Shown here: piece by piece, positions 1-62,705 of the stretch
Layout of the letters: every line of letters starts with the position of its first letter
Position numbering within the stretch: the first letter of the stretch is position 1
Assembly: GCA_008632985.1 (NCBI GenBank)
Contig: QPGO01000008.1
Location: forward strand, 848,979 to 911,741
Direction: 5' to 3'
Source of the DNA: Psammoneis japonica
Taxonomy: Eukaryota
Length of the DNA: 62,763 nucleotides
Notes under the pieces: generated by a model
The model's database searches: none
What the model was told of the DNA's origin: nothing
What the model saw: only the letters and a program-made list of their open reading frames with translations
Position numbers and translations under genes: made by a program

Positions 1-1057
1 ACAGTTTCAGCACATGTGTGTTTCATGTCCCACCACCAATCTTGCAATGCGAGTCCATGCTGTGTGCATGCCTTGGGGCAAATCAGACAGCACAATGATG
101 AAAGCCTTTGTGACAATGCTGATGGGATTTGCTCCCCACAGCAGTTCTCAAGCGGCGCTTCACTGCACCTCCTAAAGTTGCCTCCTGACCCACCGCCACA
201 CCTGGGGCCATTTTCTTTGTGGCAACTTGCCTGTGTTGCTTCAGTTTTCATCTTTTTTTTTTTCCATTGTGTTGGACCTTGAGCTCCGACAACCTCCCCT
301 CCCCTCCCGCCCCTTCTTCCCTCAAGTGTCAACATCATTTTCAACCCAATCATGTGCGATTGCTTCTGTGGCCCTGCACTGCCCTTCTCTGACACCTCCA
401 ACAGCCCCCCTCACATTTCTCCGTCCCACGACCTCGTCCCCCACGAGACTGTGCTCCCGCAAAGCCAGTCATGACACGAGCAACAGCCCCGTGTCACCAC
501 CTTTCTTCTGTGACCCCCCCTTCTGCACCTGCCACAGCCCTGCTCAATGGAGCCAATCGCGGCACCTCCAACAGCCCTTTTTTTTGCAACTTTCCCCCAA
601 GTCACAACCTCCACTGATGCCCCCCATTGCCCAAGAACCTTGGCCACCTCATCCCAAACCAGCACCCCTCCAATCATGCCCCCGAGCAGCTTCCATTGCT
701 CCACAATCACAAAAAGTTCAACTCAATGCAAGACACCAACAATGCTCTTCCTTCTCTTTCTTTCCAGTGCTCCATCATGTCTTTCCTCCAAGACAAGTCC
801 CGCTGGCTGGCCTCCTCTTCAGGACACTGCTGACAGCTCTCAAGATTCTCAGCCCCTCCTCACAACTCCTCCTGACAAGTCGAGAAGGACCTCTTTGCAG
901 CTCTGAAAAAATGCAATGTTCAGTTTTGTGCCTGCAATCCATTGGCGGGACCGACAACAATGCAAAGGACATTGGACCCAACACTCGTTTCGCACCAATG
1001 ATCGAGTCGAGTGAATCATCAGCATTGAAAGCGTGGTTGCGCGTGCTCCTGGCCACG
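1..1057. other. TpA/CpG-depleted degenerate repeat domain 1
   Basis: By eye only one TA dinucleotide (173-174) occurs in 1..1057 and TG/CA are abundant. ORFs here are Tyr-free and Cys/His-rich. Positions 1-70 are a mutated copy of 1100-1169. Confidence 0.85.
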
Positions 1058-1099
1058 TATTTTAGTCTTGAGCGCGATCAACATATTGCACATTTCTAC

Positions 1100-1169
1100 A
1101 CAGTTTCAGTACATACGTGTTTCATGTCCCGCCACCGATCTTACAACACGAATCCGTGCTGTGCGCATG
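1100..1169 (+). repeat. Less-mutated copy of the direct repeat at 1-70
   Basis: Ungapped alignment to 1-70 with 11 differences, all transitions. Confidence 0.9.
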
Positions 1170-1321
1170 CATGCCTTGCTGGGGCGACCAACCAAATAAT
1201 GCTTGTTCCCTTGAAGCACGAGTGCGTTGCAGCTCTCAACCGTCAGATTTTGTCAGAATTGCCTTTTCATCACATTATTTCAGGCCACAACTCTGTACGA
1301 CGAAGGAGTCTCTAGGAAGCA

Positions 1322-5189: not shown

Positions 5190-5320
5190 AATGTTTTTTT
5201 CTAAAAAGTATTAGACCTCTAATGTTTTTTATTGGGACCTCAGACCTCGAGGTAAAATGGTTTTTCAAAAAGCGTTGGAACTCCAATGGTTTTTGTCCAG
5301 ACCTCAGACCTCGAGGTCTG
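5190..5320 (+). repeat. Two copies of a small dispersed repeat (AGACCTCTAATG...AGACCTCAGACCTCG), also found inverted at 42668-42854
   Basis: Direct comparison with the reverse complement of 42668-42854. Confidence 0.8.
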
Positions 5321-7900
5321 ACGGAAAAGCTTACCCCGTGGCATTTGAAATGTGTGAGACCCGTCGCACTCTCTCTAGAGAGCTGGTGGCAAAGCGGGTG
5401 TAATTTTGGGGCACCCCCTGCCTCAAAAAAAAATTGCCACCAACAAATGGGCCTCCTGAGAGGCACGCATGTTTTGCTTGTAATTTTTCACACTGGTGCA
5501 AAAACAGACTCATCATCATCATCTGTGATGGCAACAATGTTGGCAGCCAACAATCAACCACGAACTTCAATCAACAAAAGATGTCAAAGCTTGTTGCTGG
5601 GAAGCTGCTGTGTGGCGCACTCAGCATGAAAGAAACAATGGCAAAAAATGGCGAGGTTGCCATCAACAGAAAACAAAACAAAGGCAAGTTCGTGTGCCAC
5701 CACAGACGAACAAGAAAAACATGCAACAAGGTCACTGAAGCCTTGCCCATGGATGCAATGGCAACACATGACATCAATCACATCATTTTGAATTGAGCAA
5801 ACTTGTCAGAACAATGGCTTGACACGCGCAAGGTTGCAGCACCACCAAACGCCATGGCATTTTGATGCAGTGTTGCAGCACCGCCAAATGCCATGGCATT
5901 TTGATGCAGTCACTTGACACTTGGCTGAGCACTCTCAACTCTCAACTTCACACGCAAATGAGTTGATTGAAGTCAGAGATGTGTGGAGTTGTCCCTGGTT
6001 GGATGTCTGCAACAAGTTTTTACATCCCCAAATTGCACTCTGAATCACACCCCAATTTCCGCAAGTGCAATGGTCCAAGTTGTTCACGGTGTCAGTTTTT
6101 GAATGCAAGGGTCGCTCACATTTTTCAGACCCGATCGCACACCAAAATGAGAACATCGTGCACCACAATTGAGGCACAACAGTGGCAGAAATCTTTGGCA
6201 TTTCTCCAAAACACAGCGGGATCTACAAACTTTTGATGTGCATCTGACCTTCAATGCACAAAGAGCATGAAACAAAATGAAAGTTTGCAGACAGACCACC
6301 TCTGTCACACAGACTTGTGGATGTTTTTCACTGAGCTGAAGTGCCATGATGAAATTCAGGAAAAATCATGCAAGTCATGAGCTGTTTGGCCAAATTTGAG
6401 CCAAAAATGCAGCAAACAATCCCCCCAGCACAGTTGTGTGAATGAGCAGGGTTCTCAAATTGCAAATGTGGAGTTCACAAACTTGCAAACATTTGTTGCC
6501 AAAGTGTGGATTTGTCATTTATGACGGACGTTTGTTGAGCCAGAATTTGTTCAGAAATTGTCTTGTTTGCAAACAGATTGTTTGCATGCTCACAGACACA
6601 AAATGTGAGCCATCATTTAAAACAGCTTGTGAAATTGCTTGGAAAGCAAAGAAACTCAGTTTTGCCAACGAAATGGAGAAGAAATGATGTCGAAGCATTT
6701 TGAGGGTGCCAACAAGTGACACAGCAGGATTTCATGTCAGCTCTTTGTGTTCAATGAAGAGCTGGAACACTGGTTCTTTGGGGTGCCCAAGGTGAGTTGA
6801 CTGTTGCAATTCCAAACTATGACAAAACATTGAAGTGTGCTTTTTTTCAATTTTCTCACTTGTGCTGCATTCTCTCTCTTGCACTGCAAAGAAGAAGCAA
6901 GAGCACTCAATTGATCTTTGCTTCTGTTGCAGCGGCAAGGTCTGACACTGACATCTGAACATGCAAGAGTGCAAGTGTGATGAATCAAGTGCCACGTTGT
7001 TGATCCACTGGTTTGTTGCTTGCTCCATTTGCCAGCTGTTGCACTGGTCAATTCTGCCTGCTGCACCAAGGAGAAAAGGTGAGAAGGCTTGTCATTTTTT
7101 GTTTCATCGCAGCACAAAGCTCTTGTGTCATTGTTGGGACAAGCAAGCAAGAATGTGAATGTTTGGTTTGCACATTTTGCTGTTGACTGAATCTTTCCTT
7201 TTCTTTGCTGCATGTTCTCGCTTTTGATTTGTTCACTCTTTGCACTCCAAAGAAAAATGGAAAGTTGGTTGGTTGTGGACATGACAAAAGGTTTGTCCTC
7301 AGTGATTGCCGCACCAATCCCACAATGCAACAAGTTGAGAGCATGGAGGAGCAAGGGGTGTGGTGTCATTTCCCAAAACCTCCACAGTGCTGTTGGAACT
7401 CCACCCCACCATTTCCACATGTTCTTTGTTGGATGAAATGCCGCTGTTGATGGCTGAGCACAGTTCCAAGAACACTTCTGCCAGGGAAGAAAAACTGCCA
7501 ACAGCAGGGATGGGTTCCTGGCCTGAACGCTTCACCACAGACAGTGGCAGATCTTGTGGAGCAGCAGGGAAAAGAGCAGAGACTTTGTTTTGTGCAACAA
7601 TTGATGCAAGAACAGAGGGCAATTTTTGTCCTCATCCTTTTCTTCTGGACATTGTGGTTGCTGCATGGCAACAACAATGTGGACAGAGCTCTTCTTCTCA
7701 TTGTGCATTTGTCCCTTCAATGGCTGCAAAAGAAGTGGGGCTGCCTGTCATTGTTGACAACTGGCTTTGATTCAAATGATTTCAGAGCCGCGGTTGCCTT
7801 GGCATGAACAGCAGCTTCTGCTGTGTTGTCATTTGTCATGTGATCCACAGAAATCAATGACCAAACTGCAACACGGTTCTTTCTTTTTGTTGTGGTTTTG
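5255..7900. other. TpA/CpG-depleted degenerate domain 2 (probable decayed TE, family not recognised)
   Basis: TA and CG are rare. Many overlapping, nearly Tyr-free ORFs. Contains a 39-bp tandem duplication at 5833-5910. Confidence 0.8.
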
Positions 7901-8256
7901 CACAGAAACGAAAGAATAAGTCGGATGCATGACTTGGTCCTGATTTGCTTTTAAGCGTGTCTGGGGCAGATCTGGAGTTGTCGGTTATCGGTCCTCTGTA
8001 GTTGGGGGTCAGGGTTCTACACTACTGTACTGTACCGTACCCAACTAAGGGCTCGAGGCTAAACGTGGCACTTCACCGTACTGGTGCCCACTTCTGTGTT
8101 TTAAGGGCACGAAGAAAGGACAGTGACGTACAGAAGCGCAAATAAAAATTGCTAAGGGAGTAGAGTTTCTATCATAGGGCGATGCTCGTGATGGTATCAG
8201 CGTTCAAATCAACAACAAAAACACAGAGATTACGAGGATGCAGTGTATGCTCAACG

Positions 8257-9939: not shown

Positions 9940-10743
9940 CGTCGCGTCGCTGCTCGCTGCATACCGGTAAGTTACGACCGCCACCAACCGCAGACATCTG
10001 AAATCTGAAACTGATCGATGATCGATGATCGATGCATACGGTACATGCGATGCGAAATGTTCAGTCTGTCTGGCTTGCGCGCGAAATCACCGTCGGACGC
10101 AAATAACACACGACAATGATGTGGTGACAATCGAAAAACAATTTGATGTTTCAAATGGCGGCAAGCCAAACCAGAGTGACTGTGATCATCTTGTTCATTG
10201 TCTTTGAGCCACAAGGGCTTGTTGGTGTGGCAAAAAGGTTGCTCCAGCAGCAGGGCAGGGTGCAAGTCATTGTCTTGCAGCACTCTTGCAACAAGATTGG
10301 CTCCAGTCAAATGCGGGCCTGACAGGGATTGGCCAAGTCTGTTTCTCCTTTCATCTGCCATGTTGGTTTGATGCATCAACTCACCTTGGGGGTCACTGCA
10401 AAATGACAAAAGCTGTCTTTCAGAGAAGTGCTCCAGTGTTTCCAGCGGGGGAGGCACTCTCTCTCTTCGCCGTCAGCACATCAGAGTCAGCGGGCACACT
10501 CTTGTTTTGTTTGTGTGCAAGCAGATTCACATTGGCCACTCACACAAAGCAACCAAGTGGGGGCAAGTGTGATGAGGGGGGCACTCTTTTGTCTGACAGC
10601 TGCTGATGGCACTCAAGGACAGCCTTTGTGCAAGAGGTTGTGCAGCCAGTGCTTTGTCATGCTGCGCTTTTTCATTTTCCACTCTTGCTCAATTTTCTCC
10701 ATTCTCACTGACAGCACCAAGGCTGAGTTTTTATGCTGTTCTG

Positions 10744-10768
10744 CTCTCTCTCTCTCTCTCTCTCTCTC
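10744..10768. repeat. (CT)n microsatellite
   Basis: Seen directly. Confidence 0.95.
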
Positions 10769-11060
10769 AAATGAACAACAAAATTGGTGAAGCTGATTTT
10801 CCATCAAATGTGACAAACAAAGAACAAAGAAGAGCAGCTGAGGCAGGGCTGCCAGCTCGGATGTTTGTCCAACTGTTTCGACGAATGGCAGGCACAACAA
10901 CGTTGGCCAAAGTCATGCGTGAGACTTTCATGGTGGCTCCATCAGTGGCCGGCTGTTGTTGTTTGCGTGGTTGAGGTTGTCGTGTTAAAAAGATCGAGTG
11001 GTGGGGGAGGACAGGCGAGTTGACTTGATCGAATGGTTTTTCTAAATCAATTCACTGCAC

Positions 11061-11113
<53 letters not shown>
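11061..11113. repeat. (TCTG)n(CT)n compound microsatellite
   Basis: Seen directly. It abuts the 3' end of the minus-strand RT relic. Confidence 0.95.
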
Positions 11114-12800
11114 AGTGGCCACCCTGTTTGTAATCCAGCAAGACAAAACTGGGGAGCCATTGGAGGTGTGAAGGATGCAGCATGAAAGGAGGTTGCCAAG
11201 GTTGCGTGACCGATTGCAGCAAACGATCATGCGGTCTAAGCCAATGCGCTGTCGGTTGTGATTTCGAATGTTGGCAAGTGCCTGGGAGCAGGGTCGAGAG
11301 GTCATCGTTCCTTTCCATGTCTTTTGTGGTTTGCTTGATGGTGGGTTGTTTGGATGGTGTGGGACATGTGGGAAGATGGGAGGATTGGTTGGGGGCTCGT
11401 CCGCAGTTGTTTCATTGCCAAAGAAATGGTTGCATGCCTTTTGGAAGATGGGTTGGAGCTTGCCAGGCTTGCAGCCTCGAGCAAGCAGTCAATGGCAAAG
11501 AAGTTTCATCTTTGTTTTTTGCATTGGTGGGGTCTGAGCAAAGCTTCTTGAAGTGGAAGAGCATGCCCACAATTGGGTGGGTGAGTGCTCCAGGCGGGTG
11601 AGCTGAATGTGGAGGGATGCACAGACATAAATTCATTTCTTTTTTGTAAAGAGTGGTGTGCAGGTGGGAGCCTTGGAGTGCAATGGTGAGGTCCACAAAG
11701 TTGGCTTGGTGGGCTCTTGGACTCGTGACCCAGTTGATGTTGCAGTCATTCATTCTGGAGGCAAATGCATTCCAGCAAGCGGCGTCGGAGGTTGACTCAG
11801 TGATTTGCCAAATGCCAAAGATGTCATTGACAAATTGTCTGCAGAAAACAAGGTTTGTGCCAAACTCCTCCAGGAGAGTGGCTTCATGTAAAGCACAAAC
11901 GAGCGTGGCACATGGCAGGGCCGGTGGTGTGCCCATTGCGGTGCCATTGCGTTGGAGCCATGCAGTGTCGCTGAAAGCAAAGACATTGTGTTTCATTGCA
12001 ATGCGGAGGGCTTCAACAAGGGCTTCTGCTGGCACATCTTGGAATTCATTCTCATGTTGTTGCAGGTGGGCCACAATTGCTTGAAGGGCTTTGTTCGTTG
12101 GGATGTTTGAGCAGTGGGACTCGGCATCAGAGGTGAAAAGAAGGCAGTTTGGTGGTGCCGCCATTTGGACTAATTCATTCTTGAGGTCCAACAAGCTTTT
12201 TGAGCAAGATGGTTGCTTGCGTGTGACTTTTTGCAGCTTGTTGTCTGCCCAGATGCCTGAGCCATAGAGCAGGAGGCTGCCACTTGTGGAGACGATGGGT
12301 CAGGATTTCAGCGGTGGGGGCTTGTGCACCTTTGGAGTGAGGCAGAAGACAGGGAATGGGGTTTCGTCAGTCTGAACATGATGTTTGAGATGCTTGCATT
12401 CCATCGGGGTTAGATCATCTTTGCATTTTTTGATCCAGTCAGCAAGAAGTTTTCTGATGTGGTGTTCATGCACGGCTTTGAAGGCGCTCAGGTGTTGGTG
12501 CGTGGTCACGTTGTTGAGGTGGTCATGAAACGCCATCTTGATGTGCTCAGTTTTTTCTGTGATGGCAGGGCCCAGGTTCTTGTCACATTGGGTGACAACA
12601 AAGTCATCTTGTTGGCACAGGCAGACAAGTGTGCAGTGTTGGTGAGGGAGTGGGTTGGTTCTGCCTCTGTGTTTGGCAAAGAGCTTGGCAAGTCTCTTCT
12701 TGAAAGAGGCACAAGAATGTTCTGGGTCTGCTCAATTGGCAACCACTTGGTGGCTCTCAGTTTTTTCGCTGCTGTGCTGCCTGTTGTGTGAGTGGGTTTT
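11113..12800 (-). mobile_element. Decayed Penelope-like element (PLE) reverse transcriptase
   Basis: Ordered PLE-RT motifs: CDKNLGP, LTPKVHKPPPLKS*PIVS, SDAESHCSNIP, QRNGTAMGTPPA, FCRQFVNDIFGIW, NFVDLTI, LYKKEMNLCLCIPPHSAHPPG, RMIVCCNRSRNLGNLLS. Interrupted by stops and frameshifts. Confidence 0.85.
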
Positions 12801-15473
12801 GTCAATGTTCCAGGTTGGCTCCCTTTGTGAGAGTGGTGAGCCAGGTTGCATTTTGTTTCTTTTGCAAGTGGGTGGTGAGCAGCAAGGTTCAGGGGGGCAG
12901 CAACTCTTGCCTCAAAAAGAGGCACCTTGGTGGTGCTCTCATGCCCAAGGACAGCATGCGTGCACAACATGTGCACCTGTGTTTTTCAGACAGCTGTTGA
13001 TGGCTCAGCTCGTGGAAATGTGAATTGTGCAAGCCTTGATGCTGCAGAAATTGGTGCAACAAGCTGATTTCACATTCTTCTTGGGCAGACCAAGTTGCTG
13101 CCAGCATTTTCTGCAGATGACCACCAAGTCAGGTGATCAGCGGTGGCATTCAGCCCCCAGACTTTTTGTTGCTCACACCTGCAGCTTGGAATGGGAACAC
13201 CACAGCCAGCATGTGCTTGCACTCCAACAACTCCAAAAATTGCAAACAGCCAAATCAACAAGACATGGAGCTGCACAGCAATCACAGGTCAAGTGCATGA
13301 AGGGGGCAGGACTCATGCTTGCTGCAAATGGAGGTGGGGGTTGCAGTTGTCTTGCACAGCAGGTTGTGAAATTGGATGTGAAGCCATGGACCCACTGCCA
13401 AGAAAGCATGAGCAAAGCAAAGTGCACAGCTCCAAAGTCTCTGGTCATGCAATGACATGAAAAACACACGGGCACCCTGCACATTGTGGGAGAAGCTGGC
13501 TGTGGCCAAGGAGGGTGCATCACTCCTTCTTTTGCTCAGATTGTTGTGCATGATCATCTTCCACACAAGAATGGGGGAAAAATCAATTGTTCCAGCAACA
13601 TTGCACACTGTCCAGAGAAAAAAAACAGATCTAAATTTTTGGTGCTGTTGCTCTGCAGCCAGCCAGGCTGGTGGTGCTGGCTGACCCGCACTCCCAGTGC
13701 ACTGCTTCAGCATGGCAGGAGCTTGCATGGGACCAGCCAAAGCCAGCACTGCCAGAAGGTGACACCCCACCAAAACAACTAAAAAGGAACAACTTGTGTG
13801 AGGAATTTGTTGCGTGCTTGTTGGCAACAGCCACAAAGGGCACACCACAACTGCAAAAAATAATTGCACAACTCAGATGGGTTTTTAAAAGAGTCCACAA
13901 AATGCTTTGGGACATGCTGCCAAAACTGGCACAAACTGACACTTCAAGGCCACTCAGTTTTGCACCAAGGAGAACCACAACAACGTGAGAAGTTCACCAC
14001 TCAAAGCAGCAAGCAGAAGAAAGATTGGACTTGGATGCATTGAGCTGGGAGCCTTGAAGGCAAGATGAGCAGGTCATTGGGGAAAAACATTTGTTGCACA
14101 CAGAAACAATGTTGGACCTTGTGCAGAAAAGCTGGCGAACACAGCAAATGGATGACAATCAAATGGCACAGAAGGACAACTCATGTTCATGCTTGCAAGG
14201 GCCACAACAGAGGCAGCACTTTCACTCTGAAGAGCAAAGGACTTGATCAAACAATGAAGAGAATGGTGGGTGGCATTGAAGACCAGCTGGTGTGGACAGA
14301 AGCAGCTTTGAGATGTGACAACTGGACCATCAATGGCATCACACAGAAACAACACCAGATCTTTTGCAAAAAAGCCAATGAGAGCAGCAAATTGATGACA
14401 ATCAAATGATGCTAAAGGATGACTCCCCTTCTCACTGGAAAGGGCCACAACGGAGGCAGCAGGAGTGCTTTTGCCCCAAAGAGTGAAGGACTTGACTGAA
14501 CAGCAGAGAAAAGAAGCAGCATTGAAAACTGGCTGGCAAGGGTGAAAGCAGTGCAGAGATGTGACATGCAGATCATCAGCAGTTTCTGCTGAACCACAAG
14601 GAATTTGCACTGGAACCTGTGCAGAAAATGTTTCTGACAAGAGAAAATTGTGAGAAACAACAGCCAGCACGCGAGTCGCGAGGCTTTGACACTCGTCATT
14701 TTCCACTGAAAAACATTGCGCATCATGCTGCAACAAGGTTGTGCCATTGGCAAATGTGGACAAAACAATGGGCTTGTTGGAGCCAACATGACACTGTCTG
14801 AGAAGGCAACATCAGCATGAGAAGTTGCACAGAAACCCACGCAGATGCCAAGGTGTGCAGCTGACGTCAAAAAGCCCCTTCTCTGCCCAGAGCAACAGCA
14901 GCAATGGGCCAACCCACACACCTTCAGCACACTGCACACTGCTGCAAAAAGTGTGACAACAATTGGCCTGCCTTGGTGCCACTCTGTGGTTCCCACCCAA
15001 AGTGACCAGCAATGGTCCTTGCACCCTGATTGTCTTCCACATGAGGCAGTTGAGAATCCCCTTGGCCCCATTTCTTCCCATCATCCAGGTTTCAGTGCAA
15101 TCATCTCACAACAAATCTTTTCCCCCATTGGCCTTTGCACAAAATATACAACCAAACAGGATTCTCTTTGGCACCGCAAAAAACCAAATCCGAAAGAAGA
15201 CAAACCACTCTTTGCGTCGTGAGTGCGTTCCTGGTAGCGCAGGCTAGCTAGCTCGCTGCTGCTAGAGTAGGGAGGCTACAGCAGGGCAAACGACTGGGAT
15301 CCTTTTAGTTTTCTCTGGCTTCTTCCTCATTGCAACATATGATCAGCAAAAGCATGAAGAAAGTAACTTTAATAAACCCTCGCTAAACTACCATTTTCTC
15401 CATCTGCGACACTGGCGATTCCATCATTTCGTTTCAGTCATCTGCTTCCACTTCGGAGTATCTTCCCCGCCCT

Positions 15474-31810: not shown

Positions 31811-31989
31811 CATCTTGAACATGACATTCGTCGCCTCTCTAGAGACTACAGTAGTAGGAGACTTGGCCTCTTGTTTCCCCACACTTTATTTTACGCATTT
31901 CTCGTCGGGGCTTCCATGCTGTAACAAGTGAGGATAGTTGGGGGTTCTGCCGCGATGAGGGAATGAAACCAACGACCAAAGTGACCTTT

Positions 31990-34900
31990 TCAGTGTTGCA
32001 ATGGTGTTTGGGCACTTTGCTATGGATGGTTGGCTTTCTTGCAGCCTGACTGGTGAGGTTCGAGGCTGAAAGTGTTGTTGCACTTTCAGAGATTGGGAAT
32101 TGAAGAAACCTCTGATTAGGTGCCTTGTGTCCATTGCATTGAACTGCAAAAAAGGAGGTGCCACACCATGAAAATCCCTCACTCAGCTGTCCCTCTGGGG
32201 AGCATCATTGTGCAGAAGTCCAAGGCTCAAAACTGTGACAGGGTTTTTCCTCCTGTGCCTGTCTCTTGAAAGAAACCATGGAGTGTGCAAGTGCAGAAAT
32301 GGCCCGTCAAGATCAAGGATTCAACAGTGGCCCGCCTGAGGTCCTTTGTTCCATTGCATGCATTTTGCATGATTTGTAAGAGGATGAATGTAAAGCCAGT
32401 GCTCACTTGAAAATCTTTTGGACTCTGGAGATCATGGGGCATTGACAGAGCCGTTTTTGCTGCATCTTAAACATTTCCAAACCCCACATGCTGCTGGTCT
32501 CCAGCCACCTTTGGAGGGACAAGTTTGGTTGCATGCCTGTGCTGGCTTGACCACACATTTCAGTGTGTGTGCCAATGTGGAGCTGGCCTGCTGCCAAACC
32601 ACCAAACATGCATCACACGGTTGATGCCCCCAGCAGGTGTGGCGGTGCACTTGTTGGAAAAAACTTTTCAGTGTCATCGTGACCCTGCACATGAACATGT
32701 GTGTGTCATGTGATCACAAGTGTGGTGCAAGCAAGCAGTGCACTCATGAAGCCTTTGAAAAGTCTCTGTCTTGCCACCATCTGAATCATCATTTGGCAGC
32801 TGTGTGCACATGCTGTTTTGTTTATCTTGCAAGACACTGACAAAATTCTTTCACCTGCTGGCAAAGCACAATGCAGAGTTGAAGTCCTGGCAAAATGCAC
32901 AACTGTCTCTAAGTTTCTCTGGCTGCTCATTGATTGTGCCCAGTGTCAAATTCTTTTCATTTGGAGCAGTTTAGAAATTGCAAAAAATGGCCACATTTGG
33001 GCTTTTCCAACGATTTGAACAGGGCTTTCTCAGCCATCTCATTCCCACAAAACCACAGCTGAGCACTGCTTTGACTGCTCTCTAACCTGGAAGCTCCTTC
33101 TTTAACTGGCTGCTTCAGCATGAGCTTTTGATGTGCATTCTCACCCATGCACTGCCTGCCATTGATTTGGAGATTTGCGTGAGACATGAAGTGCAGTGAC
33201 TGCCCCTTGTCTCTTTGTTGGCATGTTTTTGTGCTGCACATGTCAGGACAACTGCAGTGGTTGAGGGTTGTGGTTGGCAACAGAAGATTGCCACTTTGCT
33301 CTTTTTGGGTGCATTTTTGCCTCTGTCCAATTCTTCAAAAACCAAAGCCCATGCTAAAAGAACACTGCATGATCCGATGCTGGGGGACAAGAAATGTGTG
33401 CAAAAGTGCAGAGCTCTTTGCTTGTTGTGTGCATGTGTGATGTGTCCCAACAAGGCAGTGGTGGCAAGTCAGCTGGGGCTCTAGAGAGAGCTTGGACAAC
33501 ACACTGTGATGGGGCATCCAATGTCCAACCTGTGACATGTGTGCATGAAAACTGACTGTGACCAAGAACTGACCAGCAACAGAAACCACGCTGGGCAGCA
33601 AGCACATCACTCTTGCGTTCAGCTGGACCCAATCACAGAGAACAACTTTGCAGCACATTCAACTGAGGTTGGGGCAGTGTTGAAATCAGAGTCAGAATTG
33701 TGGTGTGAAGGAGCACCCCAGCTGTGCATTTTCAAAACATGATTGATGCAGCCTCTGCAATTGACAGCAACTGAGTCATCATTCTGAAGAACAACGCCCA
33801 CAGGCCATTGAACTCAGTGCAAAGTCCAAGACACTTGAAGGGAGGCAAGTTTTGTTCTCAAGCTGCCAAGTGGCCTTGCCAATGCAACCACAAACAATGA
33901 CAGCAATGTCAGTGCCATCATCAGTTGGCACATCAAGCTCAAAAACAAGTCACGTTCCTCTGTCAGATGAGCAAGTTGACAAGACTTGAAATGTTGCTCA
34001 TGAGCAAAAGTGATTTTAAAAGTCAGGATCTCATCATCAAAAACCTGACATGGAGCAAATTCTGCATCAAAAACCAAGGGCACCTGTTGTTTGTTGATGA
34101 AGATGATGCTCACACCTGCAAGCTTGTTCCACACTGCTTTAAGGGTGAAAAACAATTGAAAGCAGGGTTGCCCCTTGCAGTGTCTGAAACATGCACTTGG
34201 TCTGTCAATGTGCAAGCAGACAGGCCAACAAGACCATGGGTCCAATCCTTGGGTGGGTGCTTGATGACACATGCGACCATCTTTTCTTGGCAAAAAGATT
34301 GATGGAAGAAATGAACACAAGAACCATCATTTTACATGGCTCTGTTGGAAAAGGTGCACCTTGCTCAATTTGTTGCACAGTGCACCAAAATTCTTGACCT
34401 TGCCAGCAGCAACAGCAATCAGGGCAGATTTTTGATCTCGTGAAGGTGCAGCATTCTTTGTCCTGAGACAGTGACACATTTGCAGGGCCAAAAATGAACA
34501 AGAAGATTGGCATCAATGATTGTTGCATGGGCAGCATTCTCAACAGCAAGGTGTGTGTTGGCTCTTCAACAGGACAACACATTGACCAGACACACCAGCG
34601 TCAGAGGGACAAATGTCACAGCAACTTGTTGAAAGGGTCATGGACTTTGGGGCTCCTTGCAGATCTTGTTGCCTTGGTCCACAAGCACACATTTGTTTCA
34701 TCTAAATTGGAAGGGTGTCAAACAGAGTCATCTTGAGGGGGCCAAACACCCATCTCCACAGTGCTGTTGGACAACATCTGGGGTGCTTGGATTCACTTGA
34801 GAAGTTGCAGTCTCTTCTGCAGGTGCTGGAAGAGAGCAAAACTCATCTTGGAAAGGAGCGCACTTGCATGCAAAGAGAGACAGATTGTCACCAGGGTTGT

Positions 34901-37900
34901 TCCCGCCACAGGCAAACCCTGGCTGCCTCCAGCTTTAATGAAACACCAAATCAGGTGCACACATCATGTCCCACAAGACAAGGCTTGCTGCACAGCTGTG
35001 AGACATGCCCATGTCAGAAGACCTTGAGGTGAGAAGGTGTCTTTGCAGATCAGGAGTGGGTCATGGAGAAAAAAGCCTTGGTGCTCCATTCCATGTGATG
35101 AGTTGACAACAAACCATGATCAGCAAGCATGAGACATTCAGTGTCATTTTCAAAATGCAGGTTTCCAGAGGAGCAGTGAGTCAAGGATGAGTTTCCAAGA
35201 ATCACCTTCCCCATTTGTTGCATCAAAATGCCTTGGAGTTGCCAACTGTCTTCCAAGCATTGGTCACAGCAGCTGTCTGAAACTGCTCTGGACTTGGCAA
35301 ATGATCAGCAGCTGATGCTTTCCAAAGTCATTGGGAGTGGGAATTGCCGGATCAGATGTTGCTTGAACCATGACCTTGCAAAGATTGGCCCAGTTCTTGA
35401 GATGAGCTGGATGTCCTTGTGAAGGGCTTGCAAAGAGAGGAGCTTTCTTGACAAGCACTTCAACGGTGCAAGAGGTTGTGTCTTCCATGAGCACAGCTCT
35501 TGGCATGATGAGATCTTCAGCAATCTTGTGACAGATGGCAGCAACAGAACGTGGGGGTGCAAAACCATCCAGAACATCACCTTCAAGATCAGAGGCACTG
35601 CATTAGAACAAAGGGTGCTCAGGTGGATGTGGGCATCAGCAGAGTGATTGTCTTGCTGAGGACCACATTGTGGGGGACGTCTTTGGAAGTGAGACTGTCG
35701 AAGAAAGTTACGTAGAATTTGCACTAAAACAGTCTGTCAATCAGTGCGATTGGGGCGTTTGGGAACGCTGGACAGATCCCACGTGTTTTCTTGTGCATGC
35801 AAAATTGCACTGGAAATGCCCCCAAACACACTGGCGATCAGACCGCCTTGTCAATCTCACTTCTAAAGACGCCCCCCAATTGGTTGATGCTGTCTTGACC
35901 AAATTGACCTTAATGTGTCACGTTTTTGGCCATGTTTGGTGCACGAGAAAAAATCAATTTCTGCACAGAACTCTGGTGTGTTGGTCACTGTGACCACAAA
36001 CCAAGTTGCAGGAACAAACATGCACCACCAGTGCTGTCAATTGATGTTCAAATGTGCTTGAAATGGTGAAGAGAGACAGCACAAAATGCTGCCCCCACAA
36101 CCTTGCAGATTGGTGGTGGCAATGGTGGGACAACCTCACAATGCCCAGGACACCACAATGGTGGTGCCATGTGCCAGATGTGAGAGAAAGTGAGAAGGAA
36201 AATCATTGGATCTCTCAATCTGCCTGTGCCAATGGGTCTGTCTGCATCACATGGGTGACACAAGTGCGCGGCTGCCAATTTGCAACACCAGAAGTTTCTT
36301 GCATGGGAAGAAAAAGTGCGCATTTCAAACAAAGAATTTTTGTCTACCCAGCTGTGCATGTGCCACCAAAGAAAGGAGCAGTTCTAAAGCTTTTTAGAGC
36401 TGAAGCTTGGTTGTCCAAGAACAAAGTGAGGTGGGCCAGTTCACAAGAAAGGACTTTTGCCTTCTGCAAGAGAAAGCTGAAAGAAGAAGAAGCTGAAAAA
36501 AAAAGACAGTGTGCCACAGAAACATTGAAACCACTGAGAGACAGCTTGGGAAGAGCCAGCCAGATGTTGACAGAGAGCATCAGCTCTGTCAGAGCACACA
36601 TTCTTTGGCACGCAAAACACCACAAATCTGTGGTGTGGACTTCTCCCACACAACACCGATGAGCAAAACTTTGCTTTTGATTGGTTGCAAGACACACAAT
36701 CCAAGAAATCCCAACTTTAAAAAAAGTGGCACCAGAGCTCCTTCACAGGATCAGAGCAATTGTGAACAAGAGTTTTGGAGAAACCAGTGGCTGCTTTGGA
36801 GCCATCCCCTTTGCCACTTTGGCTTGGTTCCTCTGTTCCTCTCAATGAGCTCTTTTGGGAACACATGAAGTGCTTGCACATTGTCTTTTGTGGCAAAAAC
36901 CCCTGGATTTGTTTCTGCAAGAATGTGTGGCCATCAGCTCATCAGGCAGTTGAGAAAAGAACAACCACAGGGGCTGGCAGCACTGCAGAAATGGTGTGGT
37001 GCCTTGGAATCATGGTGTTCACCAATGTGGCAAAACACCATGGCTGTGTTGACATTTGTGTGTCTTTGTCAAGTCCAACCCCTGCATCACCCAGACATTG
37101 TTGTTGACAGAAATGCATGCCATGTCATGGCACCTTGATTGTCATCAGCAACTTCTTGTTTTCACATCTGCTGCATGAAGAGCTGCTCTCAACAAAGCCG
37201 CAACTTTGCAGGTAATCTTCGCCCTCCTTTTGCACCACAGCAGCTCCCATTTGCATGATTCCTCTGCTCTTCAGCCATCAGGACCCAATTTGTCAACACT
37301 GGAATTCATCTGTGACGGGTCTTTTTTCTTCATTGCAAGTGGGATGACTGTTTTCCAGCAATGCTCCATGACAGGATTTGAACAAGATTTTAGTTTGTCA
37401 CACACAATTGTGTGTGCTCTCAGCTCCGCGCGCGTTGCGCGATGTAGTTTGCTTTTGAGCCACAGAGCTCACAAGAACAATGACAGCAGCACCGACATCA
37501 CGACACCAGTCTTTCGGCTCCTGTGACGGTCTCTGCACGGAGACTCATCTGCTGTTTAGACAGCAGTGAGGAGTTGTTGTTTTCTTCCACCCAGTCATCT
37601 TCATTTTCTGTCACTCCAGGAGACATGCAGACAAAAGAGAAGTGCCTGATGTGGTTGACTTTGAGCACAACCCAAGCATGCTTTCCCACCAAACACTTTG
37701 ATCTCAGAATTCAAAACCTTGGCCCAAAGGGGCCACATGGCAGCTGCACTGGGGCACAACATCACAGCAACTTTGTGCGAAGCTGTCAAGGATTGCCTTT
37801 TCAAGGACTGCCCCTGATCTGCATCAGATGATGTGTTGTTTGAAAAATTTGGCAGATGATGATGAACAAAGCAATGCTGGGTCATGCAAGGGATCAGGTG

Positions 37901-40250
37901 CTGTGAAAGAGAAGGGGTTTGCCAACATGGAGGAGGTTGGCAAAAAGCTTGCAATTTCCACCATCACTTTTGAGTGTCAGCAACATGTTGTTGAGACTGC
38001 TTTGTGATGCAGGGACTCAGCATCTGAAACAGACCAATTTGGAGACCAACATGCACAGGTTCATGGCAAGGAAGAGTCCAGTCATTTTGCTCTGAACATT
38101 TTTTCAGCAAGAAGATGACGTGCTTCTTTGGCTTTCCTCATCCTCCCTCTCTTCGCACACACAGAATTTGGATTTAATCTTTCATCAGAGTCAGCTGCAT
38201 TTCTTCAACAGTTGTCAAACTGCTGTCATCCAAGGCTTTCAAAGAAACTTTGCATCACCAGCAGATCACCAATTGCCACCCCATGCTGTCAAGCCTCCTG
38301 ACTGCAGCACAGCCTGGCTCATCAAAGAAACTGTACCAGCAATTAAAAGCACTGCCAGCACAATTTGTTGGAGGGGGTGGCAGTTGAGTTTGGACATGAG
38401 GAGACATTTTGCTGTGCACTCAGAGCAAAACAGAAAGACACCCAAACTGCCTGGGCACAGACAACAAACCAGCACTGAATGTCAAGAGCTTGAAAATGTG
38501 ATGGTGGTCAAATTGTGCATTTCTTCTTGTGCGCTGAATCTGCCAATTTGGAAATGCCTCGTCTGGGTGGAGCAAGGTGTTCTGCTTTGACATGGGTTTC
38601 AAGTGCATGGCTGCCAAGTCTGGACACCCAAAGTTCCTGGTGTGGAAAGAAAAAAATGTGTGCAGAAAGAACTCATGTCTGGCTTTTCTCTTGTTCATTG
38701 CCTGGGCAGCACAAGGTGTTGTGTTTTGACATGGGTTTCAAGAGTGTGGGGTTGCCATGAAGCCCCAACACAAAAAGTGTCTGGCGTGGAAAGAAAACAT
38801 TGCTTGGGTTAATTTTTCTCTGCCCAGCCATTCATTTCCTCTGGAGGAGCTGACTTGCCCAACAAAACAAAGGTGGGGCCAGCTCAGAAGAAACATTTCT
38901 GGCATGCAGCATGAGAGCTGAAAGAAATTGTCAAAAAGAAAAAAGATGCTCCATGGAAACATCGATGCCACACTGAGAAATGGCTTTGGAGCTGACCAGA
39001 CTTTGACAGGGTGCATCAGAGTGGAAGCTCTGTCAAAAAGCATTCTTTGGCATGCAAAATGGCAGACTTCCCTGCAGTTGTGTTGGCACTGATGCACAGA
39101 GTTTGCTTTTGCTTGGCTGCAAGGTGCAACCAGAGAATCCCTGATTTTCAATGGACCACCAAGCTCTTTTGGGTTTGGCACAAGCACAAACCCCATGGCC
39201 CCCAGTTTGACCAGTCACTTTGGAGCCATGCCCTCTGCCACTTTGGTTTGGCACCTCTGCCCTTCTTGACAAAAGCTCTTTGAAAGATGCACACAAAAGA
39301 AGCACGCGGTGTCTTGGGGAGGGGGTGCACAAGTGTGTGACAGCAGCAGCACAAACAACTGCTGGGTTGGCAAGTTTTTGAATGCCGTGAAAGAAAATGC
39401 AAGCACCAGTGCCAAGCAGACCATTGCACTGTCATTTCATGACAGAGAACCCTGGATTTAGCTCTGCAAGAATGCACGGCAATCAGCTCAGCAAGAAGCA
39501 GAGAGCAACAAATTGCAAGAAAAAGAGCATGCTGCAAAAACAGTGTGAGATGAATTAGAAGCATGTGGTGTGTGCCAGTGTGGTGACAATGCCTGTGCTG
39601 ACATGTCTTGTGTCTCTTTGTCAGCCCCCACAGCACAGAAGCAAGTTTCTCAAAGAGACTCTTGCTGCAGGAGCGCAAAAGTTCTTGGCATGACAGACAA
39701 GCACATGTCTGAGCCGTGTGGAAATTGTCAACAAAAGTACACATGATTGTGGCATCTTGATTGTTGAAAGCAACCACATGAAGAATTGCTTGTGCACAAA
39801 GCTGCGACTTTGCATGGGGCAGTGGTGCCAATCTCCTTTTGCATCGTGGTGTGATCCCCACCACTGGCACATCTCATCCACTCTTGAGGTGACACCAGCA
39901 TCCAATCCTTCATTGCTGAAATTTGGCTGCATTGGGTTGTCCTTGGCTTCATCAAAGCACACAGAAATTTCTTGCACTGGTGTGAGGACCTCAAAGACCA
40001 TTCTCCAGTGACACTTGTGGATGCAAAAAAGGGCTAGAAATGCCTGTTGGCACCACAGTTGACTTTTGAGTGCAACCTGAGCATCAGACGACCTCCACCA
40101 AAGTGGCCATGGCAACTGTGCTTTCCTTGGGATGGAGCTGCCAAAGACTGCCTTCCAAGGACTGCCCCTTTGCATTGAGGATGATGAACAAAGCAATGCC
40201 AGATTGTGTGGAGGATCAGGTGCTGTGGAAGCAGGGGCTTGCCATGACGG
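31990..40250. other. TpA/CpG-depleted degenerate domain 4 (about 8.3 kb)
   Basis: TA and CG are rare throughout except for a small island near 35670-35880. Dozens of spurious, nearly Tyr-free ORFs. Confidence 0.85.
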
Positions 40251-40342
40251 AGATAAACAGAAAGCTTGGCATTTCCATCATCGCCCCTGAGTCCCAGCAA
40301 CATTATTTGTCGAGACTGCTTGCGCAAGCACTCAGCATCTAA
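36050..40342 (+). pseudogene. Tandem pair of decayed paralogous coding sequences (about 2.3-2.4 kb period)
   Basis: QWLLWSHPLCHFGLVPL (about 36790) vs QSLWSHALCHFGLAPL (about 39215). Blocks 37780-38010 and 40135-40330 are also clearly homologous. Confidence 0.65.
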
Positions 40343-42620: not shown

Positions 42621-42667
42621 GGCGCTCGTCTTCTTTCCGCAAAGAAGGTTGGGATGAGAATGTAAGT

Positions 42668-42854
42668 CGCGAGGTCTGAGGTCTAGATAAAAACCATTAG
42701 AGGTCTAATACATTTTTTGAAAAACCATTAGACCTCGCAAGACCTCGAAGCTTTTGTTCTCATCGTGGTTCGCGAGGTCTGAGGTCTAGATAAAAACCAT
42801 TAGAGGTCTTATGCTTTTTTTGAAAAAACCATTAGACCTCGCAAGACCTCGAAG
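42668..42854. repeat. Two tandem units of about 83 bp (103-bp period), each with an internal inverted repeat
   Basis: CGCGAGGTCTGAGGTCTAGATAAAAACCATTAGAGGTC...CCATTAGACCTCGCAAGACCTCGAAG at 42668 and 42771. Confidence 0.92.
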
Positions 42855-43270
42855 TTTCTGGTCGCCAAACGCCCGGGACTGCTTGGAGTCGTGTTTCAAA
42901 GCTTGCTTGCACTCTCCATCGTGAGCCGAGGGACAAAGCTCTGGCTGTTGCGTTGGTGCCATTCTGGTGTTGTTGGTTGTCTTCATTTTGCTTTTGTGCG
43001 GTGTCTCTGTCGATCCAAGAAAATTCGTGCTGTATGCATGCATGATGTGATTTTTTTCTCCTCCGTCTGTCTGTGTGTCTGTCCACTTTCGCGCCAAAAG
43101 ACGATCATTTGAAAATCAATTTCTCAGTACCGGCTCCACGAGGATTCTACGTACGTGCCAAACCGTGAGATTTGTAGTGCGACCGCCGGCTACCGGCGAC
43201 AGAAAACAAATCCGCCATCAGCCATCAGCAATACCGGTACCGGTAGATATCGATCAGATTGCGAGCAACC

Positions 43271-48961: not shown

Positions 48962-49119
48962 AATTTTTACTTACTTAACGGGGTACTTTTTTGAGTCATC
49001 ACACATTGCCCTTTGTCATTTTAATCAAGTTAGTCAAACACAGCTTTTTAAACCGCCGCATCGCAGTGCGCACGGAGAAGACGGATCTTGTGGCACAAAT
49101 GTCGCCAGTCTAACGCAGA

Positions 49120-50480
49120 AAATGTGATGGCATCCCAAGCAGAAAGAATTGCTGTTGTCAGCTGTTGCTTGCTTCCTGTCTCTCTGTTGTTGTCTCTTCT
49201 TTTGCAAGTGTTCTGAGTTGACAATGCAGGGGGCCGGCTCTCTGAGCTCTGGCAGCTCCTGGGAGCTGGCCAGCACTGCTGCTGCTCTTGGCTGGCGCCT
49301 CACAAGCAGTGGCTGTGCACAATGATGTGCACTCTTGAGCCACCACCTGGTGCCAAGACTGTGCCAAGTTGGCTTGCTTCTCTCTGTGTGGTTTCTTGAC
49401 TTTGCCCCCATGCCATCCTCATCAAAGCAAGCCTTTGTTTTCTCACCCTGCTTTTGCCGCTGCTTGTCTTGTGCTGGCACACACTGGAGATCATTTCCAG
49501 GCACCTCAGATGCTGCGTGCTTGTGAGCTTCTGCTCTTTTCATCTTTTCTTTTTGTTCTTGTTGCTCTGGCTGCTTGCTGCTCCAACACACAGCAGAGCT
49601 GCTTTTTGCTGCTGACACTGCTGCTCTTGCCCGTGACCTTGTTGGTGCCACAGCAAAGCACTGTGCTGGAAGCTCTGCACCAAACACCAAAGCTGCAAAG
49701 ACAATTGCCCAGCTCTGCAAAGAGGTCATGGAGCACATGCTTGTGCTCTCATTTGACAGAAGCAGCGCACAGCAGCAGAGAGATATCTTCAGCAAGCTCC
49801 GGTGCTTTCGCACATGCTCGGAGATTCGCTGACAAGCACTGGAGCAGTTTTTTGCAAGGCACAGCTCTCAATGACAACTGGGTTACACCCAAAAGTGGTG
49901 TTGAAAACACTTTTCAGGGAGCTGCTGCTTGGTCATGGACAACACACAGAGATTCTTGGCTGGCCTGCCGGGGCAGCAATGTGAGCTTTTGCTGGGTTGT
50001 GCTGCAAAGCATCTCACAACTGCTTGCTTTCAGCTCCCAAAACAGAGTCTCACAATTTCCCCTTTTGGCATTCTCTTCACCCCTTCCACCCAGTTCTTCA
50101 AGGCACAGCACATGCCGCTGTCCTCTGTGCAGGCTCTTGTCCCCTTTGGCGGCTTCTCTCTTCTTGCTTCCTCCTCGTGTTGCTCTGCCTCCTCTTGTGG
50201 CCTCCTCCACTGGTGCTGGTGTGGCTGGACACTTTGTTTCTGCACAAGCTCCTTGTCTGCATGTTGCATTTTGCTTCACACGTTGTCCCTTGTCCTTGAG
50301 TGCAGCTGCCTTTGATGATGGTTGCTTGTGCAGTTGTTGTCAGTTCTCCCCACTTTAACACACGGGTCACTTTTGTGACATGACGACTCTCGCTTCGCTC
50401 GAGTCGAGTTAATCAAAACCTGCTGCCCACACCAGGTGAAAAAATGCCAGTTCATCTTCCCATCTGTCTTGCTTCCCATG
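49120..50480. other. TpA/CpG-depleted degenerate domain 5
   Basis: Only a few TA in about 1.3 kb. The 329-aa and 259-aa ORFs here contain no Tyr. Confidence 0.85.
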
Positions 50481-57909: not shown

Positions 57910-57967
57910 AGTGCGGTCATAACGGCGGTATGGAAATCTGATTGGACAAACGACGTCAGCTAAGAAC
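57910..57967 (+). repeat. Left terminal inverted repeat of the MULE (minimum extent)
   Basis: Exact reverse complement of 62706-62763. Confidence 0.95.
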
Positions 57968-58106
57968 CGTGTGATAATCGATAAGTAACGATGACATCAT
58001 CCTTACCTCACCATACGTGTACATTTTCATCGGTGGATATATTATTATGAATGTTCCCAACTTACTCACAGCCAACTGCAGCGCTGCAGCGCACAATGAC
58101 ACCGGT

Positions 58107-59055
58107 CGACGGTGTCCCACTTTACGGCGAGATATCTCAATGATACTTACACCGATTTCCCCGTTTCTTTTTTCAGTATTGGGATAAATTGTACAATGCA
58201 TCCTACTAGGTTGGTGCCATTGTACATTATTGAGAATTATGGATTTCTGTTTTGTTTGAAACCTCGCAGCAATTTCAAATTTTGGAAAAGCGCGCACGAC
58301 GGTGTCCCACTTTACGGCGTGATATCTCAACGATACTTACACCGATTTCCCTGTTTCTTTTTTCAGTATTGGGATACATTGTACAATTCATCCTACTAGG
58401 TTGGTCCCATTGTGAATTATTGAGAATTATGGATTTCTGTTTTGTTTGAAACCTCGCAGCAATTTCAAATTTGGAAAAGCGCGCACGACGGTGTTCCACT
58501 TTACGGCGTGATATCTCAACGATACTTACACCGATTTCCCCGTTTCTTTTTTCAGTATTGGGATTCATTGTACAATTCATCCTACTAGGTTGGTCCCATT
58601 GTGAATTATTGAGAATTATGGATTTCTGTTTTGTGTGCAACCTCGCAGCAATTTCAAATTTGGAAAAGCGCGCACGACGGTGTTCCACTTTACGGCGTGA
58701 TATCTCAACGATACTTACACCGATTTCCCCGTTTCTTTTTTCAGTATTGGGATTCATTGTACAATTCATCCTACTAGGTTGGTCCCATTGTGAATTATTG
58801 AGAATTATGGATTTCTGTTTTGTGTGCAACCTCGCAGCAATTTCAAATTTGGAAAAGCGCGCACGACGGTGTTCCACTTTACGGCGTGATATCTCAACGA
58901 TACTTACACCGATTTCCCCGTTTCTTTTTTCAGTATTGGGATTCATTGTACAATTCATCCTACTAGGTTGGTCCCATTGTGAATTATTGAGAATTATGGA
59001 TTTCTGTTTTGTGTGCAACCTCGCAGCAATTTCAAATTTGGAAAAGCGCGCACGA
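58107..59055. repeat. Tandem array of five 189-190-bp units inside the MULE
   Basis: ACGGTG anchors at 58109, 58299, 58488, 58677 and 58866, ending at 59055. Units 3-5 are essentially identical. Confidence 0.97.
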
Positions 59056-59147
59056 AGGATGCAGGTAAGTACCATTCGATTCTCCGTGGTGCTACACCAA
59101 TATTCTTACTTCTTTGCACCATTTTAACAAGAAGTTGACAACGTCCC

Positions 59148-62100: not shown

Positions 62101-62507
62101 ACCATGCCCTCCTTGTCAACATCCGTATCCAGATTTGGTCCATGTTGGTCCACCACGTCTTTCAGGGACTTGGGCAACCAATCGATGCTGTCGGCCACTT
62201 TGCTTTTTGCGTTGCTCAGAGCTCTCTTAGTCGGCTTGTCATCTGGCCCAGTGTCAGTCACCGCGACGTTGTCGACTCGCTCGAATGGATCTCCGTCCCC
62301 TTCATTCCATTCAGGCTGTTCCGGTGGGTGGTTTTCAAAGAACTTGTAAGACATGGTTTGCACACTGCGGTTGTCAATGTTGGCGCCAAGGGCCGATGGT
62401 GTTGGTGGTTTTTCAGGCGGTGTTGATTTAGAGGCGGTGTGGATGGAGCCAGAGTTGACAACGGTGTGGTTGTCGCAACGATGCTGGTGGTTGGTGCGGC
62501 ACACCAA
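59148..62507 (-). CDS. MULE transposase with FAR1/WRKY-like, DDE and SWIM-like domains
   Basis: C...SIKGNCPF...FEHNC zinc domain. YGDMIFLD, LMFADG, WDSFH, AESNHS catalytic core. CDC...CPH SWIM. Late CSFCG...C knuckle. True start may be an ATG near 62354. Confidence 0.85.
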   Translation of the reverse strand: MVCRTNHQHRCDNHTVVNSGSIHTASKSTPPEKPPTPSALGANIDNRSVQTMSYKFFENHPPEQPEWNEGDGDPFERVDNVAVTDTGPDDKPTKRALSNAKSKVADSIDWLPKSLKDVVDQHGPNLDTDVDKEGMVKLEKLESAAQELFGSILKKRSFVNFCQLKQAAIRFGDAWGFHLTTVNNYHLKCFFKKANKKAQESVVSPSRQRNRQSIKGNCPFVIKATVDQRNPKDERHRRMVRITGHCFEHNCNPGVEASRLAKKAAGAVLGNINLADMDRIAETIATGVVTNPRGIRGLLRKCVPDGQVITADDVRNVRMRAKKHYLEDKPMDAKAAENLMRFKPLAENEAVQLPDTDLCRTKVRELLRQVMQDRGEAWKAELYLMKIKQSSRGLDCRVKKDANGEPCAIVWMTQTMRKAWIRYGDMIFLDFMKTKMNSDHWPYIGPVALDHEKRIVQLNETICFEEELEHYEFAVKSLEDMEPRRKISSIRLMFADGFLNDSILGMLDLDRPVQIGALEGTDLLWDSFHLRTNVWPLEMGQQTYDAISENMCAMLHSDTREQYDKAYERIEAKLGSDPVKLQYIKGYYDHPERFAGYYIKRIPGNLGKSSSQPAESNHSSVQAHLGSGSTEDMVEQISGLLERQTTRDQQNKTEDAKYRLISARKAEEVQSENASEAEALRTLSKWAHETYWTEVYNESFNYKLLEDKGDNFDRVHREGTSVDSVRLVPKHGRCDCTRRLEALSMCPHECCRNGRVFDKALFPERLYQPHKMEPIADVDDSCRDDGDGRASDSSDDDVALSQLAPQTESTATEASESEMASMEFESAEAAPNETVSTVSALSETASKETNSRKPKKVNRNQMLKACTKLTEYAVSSSTALGGALYGSILELLDIAKKGGSPDDAADVVGVVAQAARKRPASSLSNPPTKRGPEANRAGALRKKRIASQVMARNGGTVAAKKNEKSKSTCSFCGDKNCRTIVTCRELRKIGHRVRQQDINKFMTDSMHFSRAITDQVKLATLVSTEKPVLETLPLGTKWVVFHALYNIRPLATTMGNEDNIGVEVSCYGGAGVPLAIGNIQFERRIAKSVSVRNWISKYASSNTGKVWTRLIISHDSINH

Positions 62508-62705
62508 ATTCGAAGTATTTGATCGAGTGCTGCGAGTAAGTGCAACTACCTACGTGGAGAAGTGTGTTTGTTATCGGTGTGTTGCGGCACCGGTAGCACA
62601 TGTGATTGCTGGTAGACACCGGTAATAAAGTGCGCGCGATGTTGCGTTTTTGGCAGGTGCTGGGGGGCAATGATGATGTCAACATCACTTATTGTGAACA
62701 AATAA

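Follow-up and report, generated by a model that had tools for sequence, protein, structure and literature searches.

Loss of TpA ahead of CpG in transposon-rich domains of the diatom Psammoneis japonica, read from transposon copies and from a duplicated sequence upstream of a ferric reductase gene

Results

The ferric reductase locus and its duplicated upstream sequence

The window (the whole stretch of DNA analysed, 62,763 nt) is part of a Psammoneis japonica contig (G000:C7:848979-911741); positions are counted from its first letter, and negative positions lie upstream of it. A two-state model detected five depleted domains with sharp borders, including the one that opens the window (Table 1). 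Across 48 kb of domain DNA, TA has 0.08 times and CG 0.22 times its level in 45 kb of DNA outside such domains. The domain ending at 1057 is at least 31 kb long, depleted in TA and CG and enriched in TG/CA. Between about -3600 and -127 it is a patchwork of broken FKBP (PF00254), helicase-associated-domain (PF03457) and aldo-keto reductase pieces, and a degenerate tandem array of short units (~60 bp) was found within it at G000:C7:829808-831441.

The ferric reductase has one match in the genome, with no paralog beyond it that could serve as an outgroup source of the promoter, and all of its named homologues are from diatoms. Elsewhere in the window, RT-like frames lie inside the third domain (11412-12731, no Pfam match), and a small repeat family with ~60-nt units and a palindromic core occurs at 5190-5321 and 42667-42863, upstream of a TAF9-like gene and between two divergent ORFs.

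Table 1. Features of the window, with coordinates counted from its first letter
Feature	Position	Strand	Basis or remark
TA/CG-depleted domain, right end	1-1057		continues at least 30 kb further upstream of the window
Inner copy, 3' end	1-79	+	whole copy starts at -287 (G000:C7:848691); all TA and most CG lost
Spacer, ~790-bp piece of the 5' end of a dispersed repeat	88-872	+	start placed at 78-92, truncated at ~872; TA-purged
Outer copy, part 1: aldo-keto reductase gene fragment (PF00248)	873-993	+	alignment to genomic copies, Pfam
Interval holding the TA-loss front	934-1058		last erased TA at 933-934, first kept TA at 1058
Outer copy, part 2	994-1187	+	sequence in these two copies alone
Ferric reductase-family gene, intact, 813 aa	1322-3763	+	Ferric_reduct, FAD_binding_8, NAD_binding_6 (Pfam)
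Second TA/CG-depleted domain	5402-7916		two-state model
Further TA/CG-depleted domains	10105-15144, 31936-40253, 49112-50355		two-state model
Young element	57910-62763	-	58-nt perfect terminal inverted repeats, 1068-aa ORF without Pfam match

The sequence-only reading had noticed that 1-70, inside the domain, aligns without gaps to 1100-1169, just outside it, with 11 differences that are all transitions. Realignment agreed in every respect, including the substitution classes; the differences lie at 11, 16, 17, 32, 38, 44, 48, 49, 53, 57 and 65. By chance, 59/70 identical letters without a gap would turn up somewhere in the window with a probability of ~1e-14. All three TA of the outer 70-mer (1110, 1114, 1142) are lost in the inner one, where they read CA, TG and TG, and so are five of its six CG, the CG at 1149 being kept. 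Of the 70 positions, 18 belong to a TA or CG of the outer copy, and these hold eight of the 11 differences (Fisher p=5e-4). The distance of ~150-220 bp to the ferric reductase ATG was likewise confirmed (1100-1169 lies 153-222 bp upstream of the ATG at 1322).

The pair proved longer than that reading saw: 873 to ~1187 (~315 bp) corresponds to -287 to ~79 (G000:C7:848691-849057), the inner copy being cut by the window start and lying partly upstream of it. The reductase-derived DNA to which the inner copy belongs begins at about -427, and the reductase piece on this side spans -427 to -127. The inner copy carries 62 more bases than the outer one, and the unmutated reductase copies elsewhere in the genome show that these were deleted from the outer copy. 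Part 2 of the outer copy is probably native upstream DNA of the ferric reductase and may act as its promoter. A genome search with 1000-1250 and with the 70-mer found no third copy, giving at least two copies (counts are lower bounds).

The pair is real. Contigs of run X1 cover both copies without any differing letter; as the assembly may itself derive from X1, this is not independent support. No second haplotype lacking the insertion was seen in the contigs of three runs (one sample). A left copy, a piece of an element and a right copy follow one another as they do in a long target-site duplication, an order that repair with template switching would equally produce. With either origin both copies were equal at the start, so that the pair is a fair test of position.

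Direction of mutation and the state of each copy

Aldo-keto reductase copies without such mutation are present in normal DNA on contigs C47, C290, C81, C91 and C99, the C99 copy having an open frame matched by PF00248. Columns in which the C47, C290 and C99 copies agree were taken as the ancestral state. In these columns the inner copy has lost all 11 TA (10 to TG, one to CT) and 14 of 16 CG, while 14 of 15 TG and 12 of 14 CA are kept (26/29 together). The near-identical loci on C290 and C81, like another such pair on C41 and C317, are haplotigs or recent segmental duplications, and they are unmutated.

The outer copy had been described as preserved, which holds in part only: besides the 62-nt deletion, its first 60 bp lost all three reductase TA (917, 927 and 933, now TG). 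It keeps all seven TA of 1058-1143 and three of the four CG in agreed reductase columns; five CG remain in 873-993 (881, 946, 952, 986, 991), of which four are lost in the inner copy. Since the outer copy lost 3/3 reductase TA and kept most CG, the TA border runs through it. In the two-state model CG depletion stops at 945 and TA depletion at 1057; the TA front lies 62-186 bp past the repeat end and ~110 bp beyond the modelled CG front; at most domain edges the TA and CG borders coincide within ~60 bp. An ancestral TA at 917-918 has become TG in one copy and CT in the other, most simply through two separate hits after the duplication.

In 994-1163 the outer copy has seven TA and 13 CG, and the inner copy lacks all seven of these TA and 11 of these CG. 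Part 2 (994-1187) has no outgroup, and the 70-mer has no third copy. The polarity of the 70-mer and of 994-1163 is accordingly that suggested by the adjoining part of the same duplicate.

The direction from TA and CG to TG/CA is almost certain, three unmutated reductase outgroups and five transposon copies (below) agreeing on it. The opposite result, an ancestral TG/CA state, which was named at the outset as what would overturn this polarity, did not appear. A gain of TA and CG by the outer copy is hardly credible, and so is an assembly artefact behind the pair. The lack of a third copy of the 70-mer and the CA/TG swap at 48-49, which needs two steps, speak for a gain; for 873-993 it is refuted by outgroups that have TA and CG with an open reductase frame, and it would require that one copy turned TG/CA into both TA and CG while changing little else (18 of 26 differences). 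Such swaps are also seen in transposon copies hit by the process, where they are expected because any new TA or CG would be quickly removed. As to an artefact, read contigs contain both copies unchanged.

TA loss runs ahead of CG loss in transposon copies

The young element at the end of the window, presumably Mutator-like, was used as the reference for four other genomic copies, with its first 1200 bases (tandem repeats) left out. Inside it, a 189-bp tandem array (58088-59144) follows directly on the long ORF and reads as an open frame of 266 codons. TA and CG losses in the four copies were 2/85 and 0/154 (C90), 3/85 and 0/154 (C100), 14/105 and 4/181 (C32), and 79/100 and 34/176 (C126); the difference is significant for C32 (p=5e-4) and C126 (p=2e-22). 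At three further sites the window's own copy is of CA/TG type where three other copies have TA. Other transitions are rare in the C126 copy (non-TA T>C 12/1598, non-CG C>T 4/1402), and C sites within CG changed in 34/352 cases against the same 4/1402 for other C sites. A helicase-associated-domain copy on C191 has likewise lost 14 of 17 TA and two of 23 CG. TA loss thus runs ahead of CG loss.

The C126 copy sits in ~25 kb (G000:C126:209325-234324) with mostly 0-5 TA and 15-34 CG per 500 bp, within which an island of 1.5 kb (225325-226800) has normal or high TA. Another locus on the C32 contig (G000:C32:413018-418687) is TA-purged yet open, with a 1889-codon frame, 7.8 TA/kb and 74 CG/kb; it resembles a copia-type retroelement.

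Context of the lost TA sites

Residual TA in the 48 kb of domain DNA, relative to the 45 kb of other DNA, is 0.011 for RTAY, 0.051 for YTAY/RTAR and 0.262 for YTAR. Among polarised asymmetric hits the changed A precedes a pyrimidine in 66 cases and a purine in 21 (3:1 for TAY, p=1e-6), in a pool of seven sets that share references and hence are not all independent. In a lightly hit transposon copy all eight asymmetric hits were TAY, and YTAR was hit at 0 of 16 sites. The 10 TG outcomes in the reductase fragment are explained by their TAY contexts. A strict TAY-only rule was ruled out, 21 of the 87 asymmetric hits being TAR, including the TA at 1097 of the pair. Loss of CG in the domains has little flank preference (0.17-0.24).

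Adenines close to a hit are also affected. Same-strand A>G within 3 bp of a hit occurred at 10/170 sites, compared with 26/3496 far away (stratified OR 4.3, p=2e-4), and the excess persisted without the pair's own block (OR 3.5, p=0.007). On the opposite strand the count was 3/133, the same-strand value not being significantly higher (p=0.16). The change TTTTA>CCCCA at 1060-1063 is a local example of this bystander pattern. A processive enzyme making long same-strand runs was rejected: 41 adjacent same-strand pairs were counted among 78 hits, against 38.4 after shuffling (p=0.32). Such a pattern is what an enzyme of short footprint would leave if it acted in single events, each independent of the others.

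Where the loss stops

The spacer between the copies belongs to a dispersed repeat with 32 genomic matches. Neither a Pfam search in six frames of its C89 copy nor tblastn with the window's RT-like frames against 20 loci gave a match for the family. Four of the 10 loci examined end in normal DNA, with halos of 48, 91, 85 and 74 bp (distance to the last host TA outside the element, whose start is placed to ~15 bp; joint chance ~1e-5), and these halos end 120-580 bp from open frames. A halo of 48-91 bp at four other repeat ends means that a short halo alone accounts for the border at 934-1058.

The sequence-only reading had attributed the preserved copy to protection by genic chromatin. In that form the idea was not borne out: it is possible but not needed, the front lying 62-186 bp past the repeat against halos of 48-91 bp, and the young C32 transposon copy has all 14 of its TA hits in the half that faces a gene's 5' end (14/58 there against 0/48 in the other half, p=1e-4), the last one ~420 bp from the neighbouring gene's ATG. 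A border set by the ferric reductase, whose promoter chromatin or selection against silencing would block a spreading front, is a serious possibility that falls somewhat short of an even chance. All eight borders measured (50355 is not among them) lie 126-654 bp from an ORF end, and the four halos of the spacer family stop at comparable distances, as given above. However, transposons inserting in the short spacers of a diatom genome end near genes anyway, and the front here is within 186 bp of the repeat end.

Synonymous TA in the nearest 300 bp of bordering genes is not depleted (62/152, against 263/799 for 10 ORFs used as controls). The mutator therefore stays out of the bordering genes, and purifying selection acting base by base is not supported as what sets the border. 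On C191, with no intact gene near, TA loss ran ~1.3 kb into a gene copy, while the paralog on C175, next to a domain, is untouched. This leaves room for genes as barriers. The halo and gene-barrier readings are compatible and would look alike at the level of sequence.

Discussion

Proposed mechanism

A ~370-bp stretch, made of a dead aldo-keto reductase fragment and DNA lying upstream of the ferric reductase, was duplicated around a ~790-bp piece of repeat. The copy enclosed by repeat DNA then had all TA and most CG converted to TG/CA, and the outer copy lost TA solely nearest the repeat. Two processes are at work, a fast TA to TG/CA change and a slower CG to TG/CA change, and both are set by position and not by copy number. 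As is the case in other diatoms, transposon DNA would be CG-methylated and packed in silent chromatin, and CG loss would follow from deamination of 5-methylcytosine. An enzyme recruited to the same chromatin may alter the A of TpA such that replication reads it as G. Deamination to hypoxanthine while the DNA is transiently unpaired is the likeliest route; TAY would be preferred, and a same-strand A up to 3 bases away would sometimes be affected too. The change would spread ~50-190 bp past the element end where a gene is near, and 934-1058 would mark the limit of spread. We give this explanation as a whole a probability of about 0.6. Its core, two processes targeted by position, is very probable, and adenine deamination as the chemistry has close to even odds.

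Adenine base editors make bystander edits close to their target. Adenine deamination is favoured here because TAC is the preferred motif of ABE7.10 and of its parent TadA, according to the accessible part of the source (PMC8065034). The process resembles TadA-derived editors in A>G change on DNA, TAC context and bystanders, although those editors are engineered.

The genome was searched for candidate enzymes. Nine deaminase matches were found, all ordinary-looking, with classes assigned by motif reading: dCMP, TadA/ADAT2, guanine-type and riboflavin-pathway. An ADAT2-like gene is among the genes of this genome, as is, to our knowledge, expected in any eukaryote. At G000:C79:87006-90176 a zinc deaminase domain and a 2OG-Fe(II) oxygenase (DIOX_N, 2OG-FeII_Oxy) share a single open frame, which probably has a role in purine metabolism. 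For cytosine methylation, 27 C5-methyltransferase matches were detected on 14 contigs, several with stops; two are DNMT2-like by motif reading, one that was examined is closest to DNMT1 among solved structures, at least one match (on C301) is cysteine-rich and looks TA-purged, and no DNMT5 was identified among the 27.

Alternative explanations

Read from the letters, A>G is indistinguishable from T>C on the paired strand, and a modified thymine would fit as well. In that case 5-hydroxymethyl- or formyl-uracil, or a TET/JBP-like hypermodified T, at TpA would pair with G or be repaired to C. Oxidised thymines do mispair, and the product would be identical, T>C at RTA being A>G at TAY. We consider this unlikely, the bystander hits and the TAC-like preference resembling TadA-type deaminases; a Pfam Tet_JBP search was also empty, which weighs little given that its control gave no match either. 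Much less probable is error-prone repair by a polymerase eta-like enzyme (WA>WG, the signature of polymerase eta) after T:G mismatches from 5-methylcytosine. It would couple both changes to one border, as the coincidence of most borders within ~60 bp allows, and TTTTA>CCCCA at 1060-1063 fits the WA rule. It is nevertheless rejected, being largely refuted by the rate at AA: A>G in the C126 copy affected 5/541 sites after A, 6/595 after C and 2/462 after G, and AA is enriched 1.11-fold in the domains. TA loss, moreover, precedes CG loss and does not follow it.

Repeat-induced point mutation (RIP) of ascomycetes is a RID/DNMT4-dependent C>T change that acts in the sexual cycle, creates TpA, is triggered by homology and hits both copies, and a close direct repeat, such as the present pair, is its best trigger. 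The process described here is like it in that transitions at specific dinucleotides ruin transposons and extend a little into the flanks. Several C5-methyltransferases are present in the genome, and diatoms have a DNMT4 related to RID, according to the accessible part of the study (PMC9998398). A mutation of duplicated DNA triggered by homology is still very improbable, because the near-identical reductase copies on C290 and C81 are untouched and the outer copy was hit only near the repeat, one copy being changed along its length and the other in the initial 60 bp. With A:T>G:C as its main change, the process runs opposite to RIP; TpA, created by RIP, is removed here to 0.08 of background. The process follows position, outer 1058-1143 keeping 7/7 TA, and in Bigelowiella natans the target is single-copy as far as the accessible part of the preprint states (bioRxiv 10.64898/2026.01.13.699255). 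Identity with RIP was rejected on the fall of TpA and the sparing of the outer copy and of the C290/C81 copies.

Comparison with known systems

The process works like the TpA hypermutation of B. natans together with ordinary CpG decay. In that alga, Mettrop et al. (bioRxiv 10.64898/2026.01.13.699255) measured TpA>TpG/CpA hypermutation in two viral inserts, the targets being virophage and NCLDV DNA integrated in the genome. As given in the accessible part of this preprint, two silent or viral regions gained 231 new mutations, of which 230 were A:T>G:C, each of them at TpA; the rate per generation was raised ~1000-fold, in some lines only, and an ADAT-like adenine deaminase was proposed but not shown. 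Within the same part of the text, the likeness covers the TpA>TpG/CpA change, its regional character, foreign or mobile DNA as target, independence of copy number and TpA-poor, CpA/TpG-rich clusters. Here, too, A:T>G:C is concentrated at TpA (79/100 TA against 12/1598 other T>C in the C126 copy, and 11/11 in the inner reductase fragment), it is confined to five domains of the window, and genes are spared, synonymous TA of bordering genes being undepleted. The accessible B. natans data have no G:C>A:T excess; in Psammoneis CG loss is 0/154, 0/154 and 4/181 in young copies and reaches 14/16 in the old domain, where the second process adds up.

Several features differ. The organism is a diatom (a stramenopile) and not a rhizarian, erasure is near-complete (TA at 0.08 of background over 48 kb), and the targets are transposons and dead pieces of host genes, with later CG loss within nearly the same borders. 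The TAY/RTAY rule, the bystander hits and a measured halo do not appear in the accessible part of the B. natans text. Our literature search, which covered little of the subscription literature, found no diatom report of TpA hypermutation, the B. natans preprint standing alone. In Phaeodactylum tricornutum, transposons are CG-methylated in a DNMT5a-dependent manner, and the RID-related DNMT4 is described in diatoms, as far as the accessible part of that work goes (Hoguin et al., PMC9998398). Decay driven by 5-methylcytosine resembles what is seen here in that CG>TG/CA occurs on both strands, above other C>T (34/352 against 4/1402 in the C126 copy), in transposon-rich DNA. It explains the CG half alone, the TA loss being faster and earlier.

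Significance

TpA-directed A:T>G:C hypermutation has been measured so far in one alga, in two viral inserts, and here it is seen near completion on the transposons and dead gene copies of a diatom. The duplicate pair itself is one more example of the process and not the discovery. The locus and its paralogs give the direction fixed by outgroups, the timing (TA before CG), the flank rule and the reach of tens of bases, which are the properties needed to single out and test an enzyme. In practice, ages of repeats from raw divergence would be too high in such domains, and TA-purged domains lose stop codons and therefore carry long false ORFs.

Tentatively, and at somewhat less than even odds, we propose a putative natural, chromatin-guided adenine editor of diatoms. 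It would load on transposons soon after their insertion, convert TpA to TpG (best at RTAY) on either strand with neighbouring adenines nicked, and spread less than 200 bp past the element end next to genes, before and apart from CG decay. Such an "inverse RIP" defence may be shared with Rhizaria and is possibly old in SAR. If true, many fields would take an interest in such an editor, since it would change DNA adenines naturally in a eukaryote.
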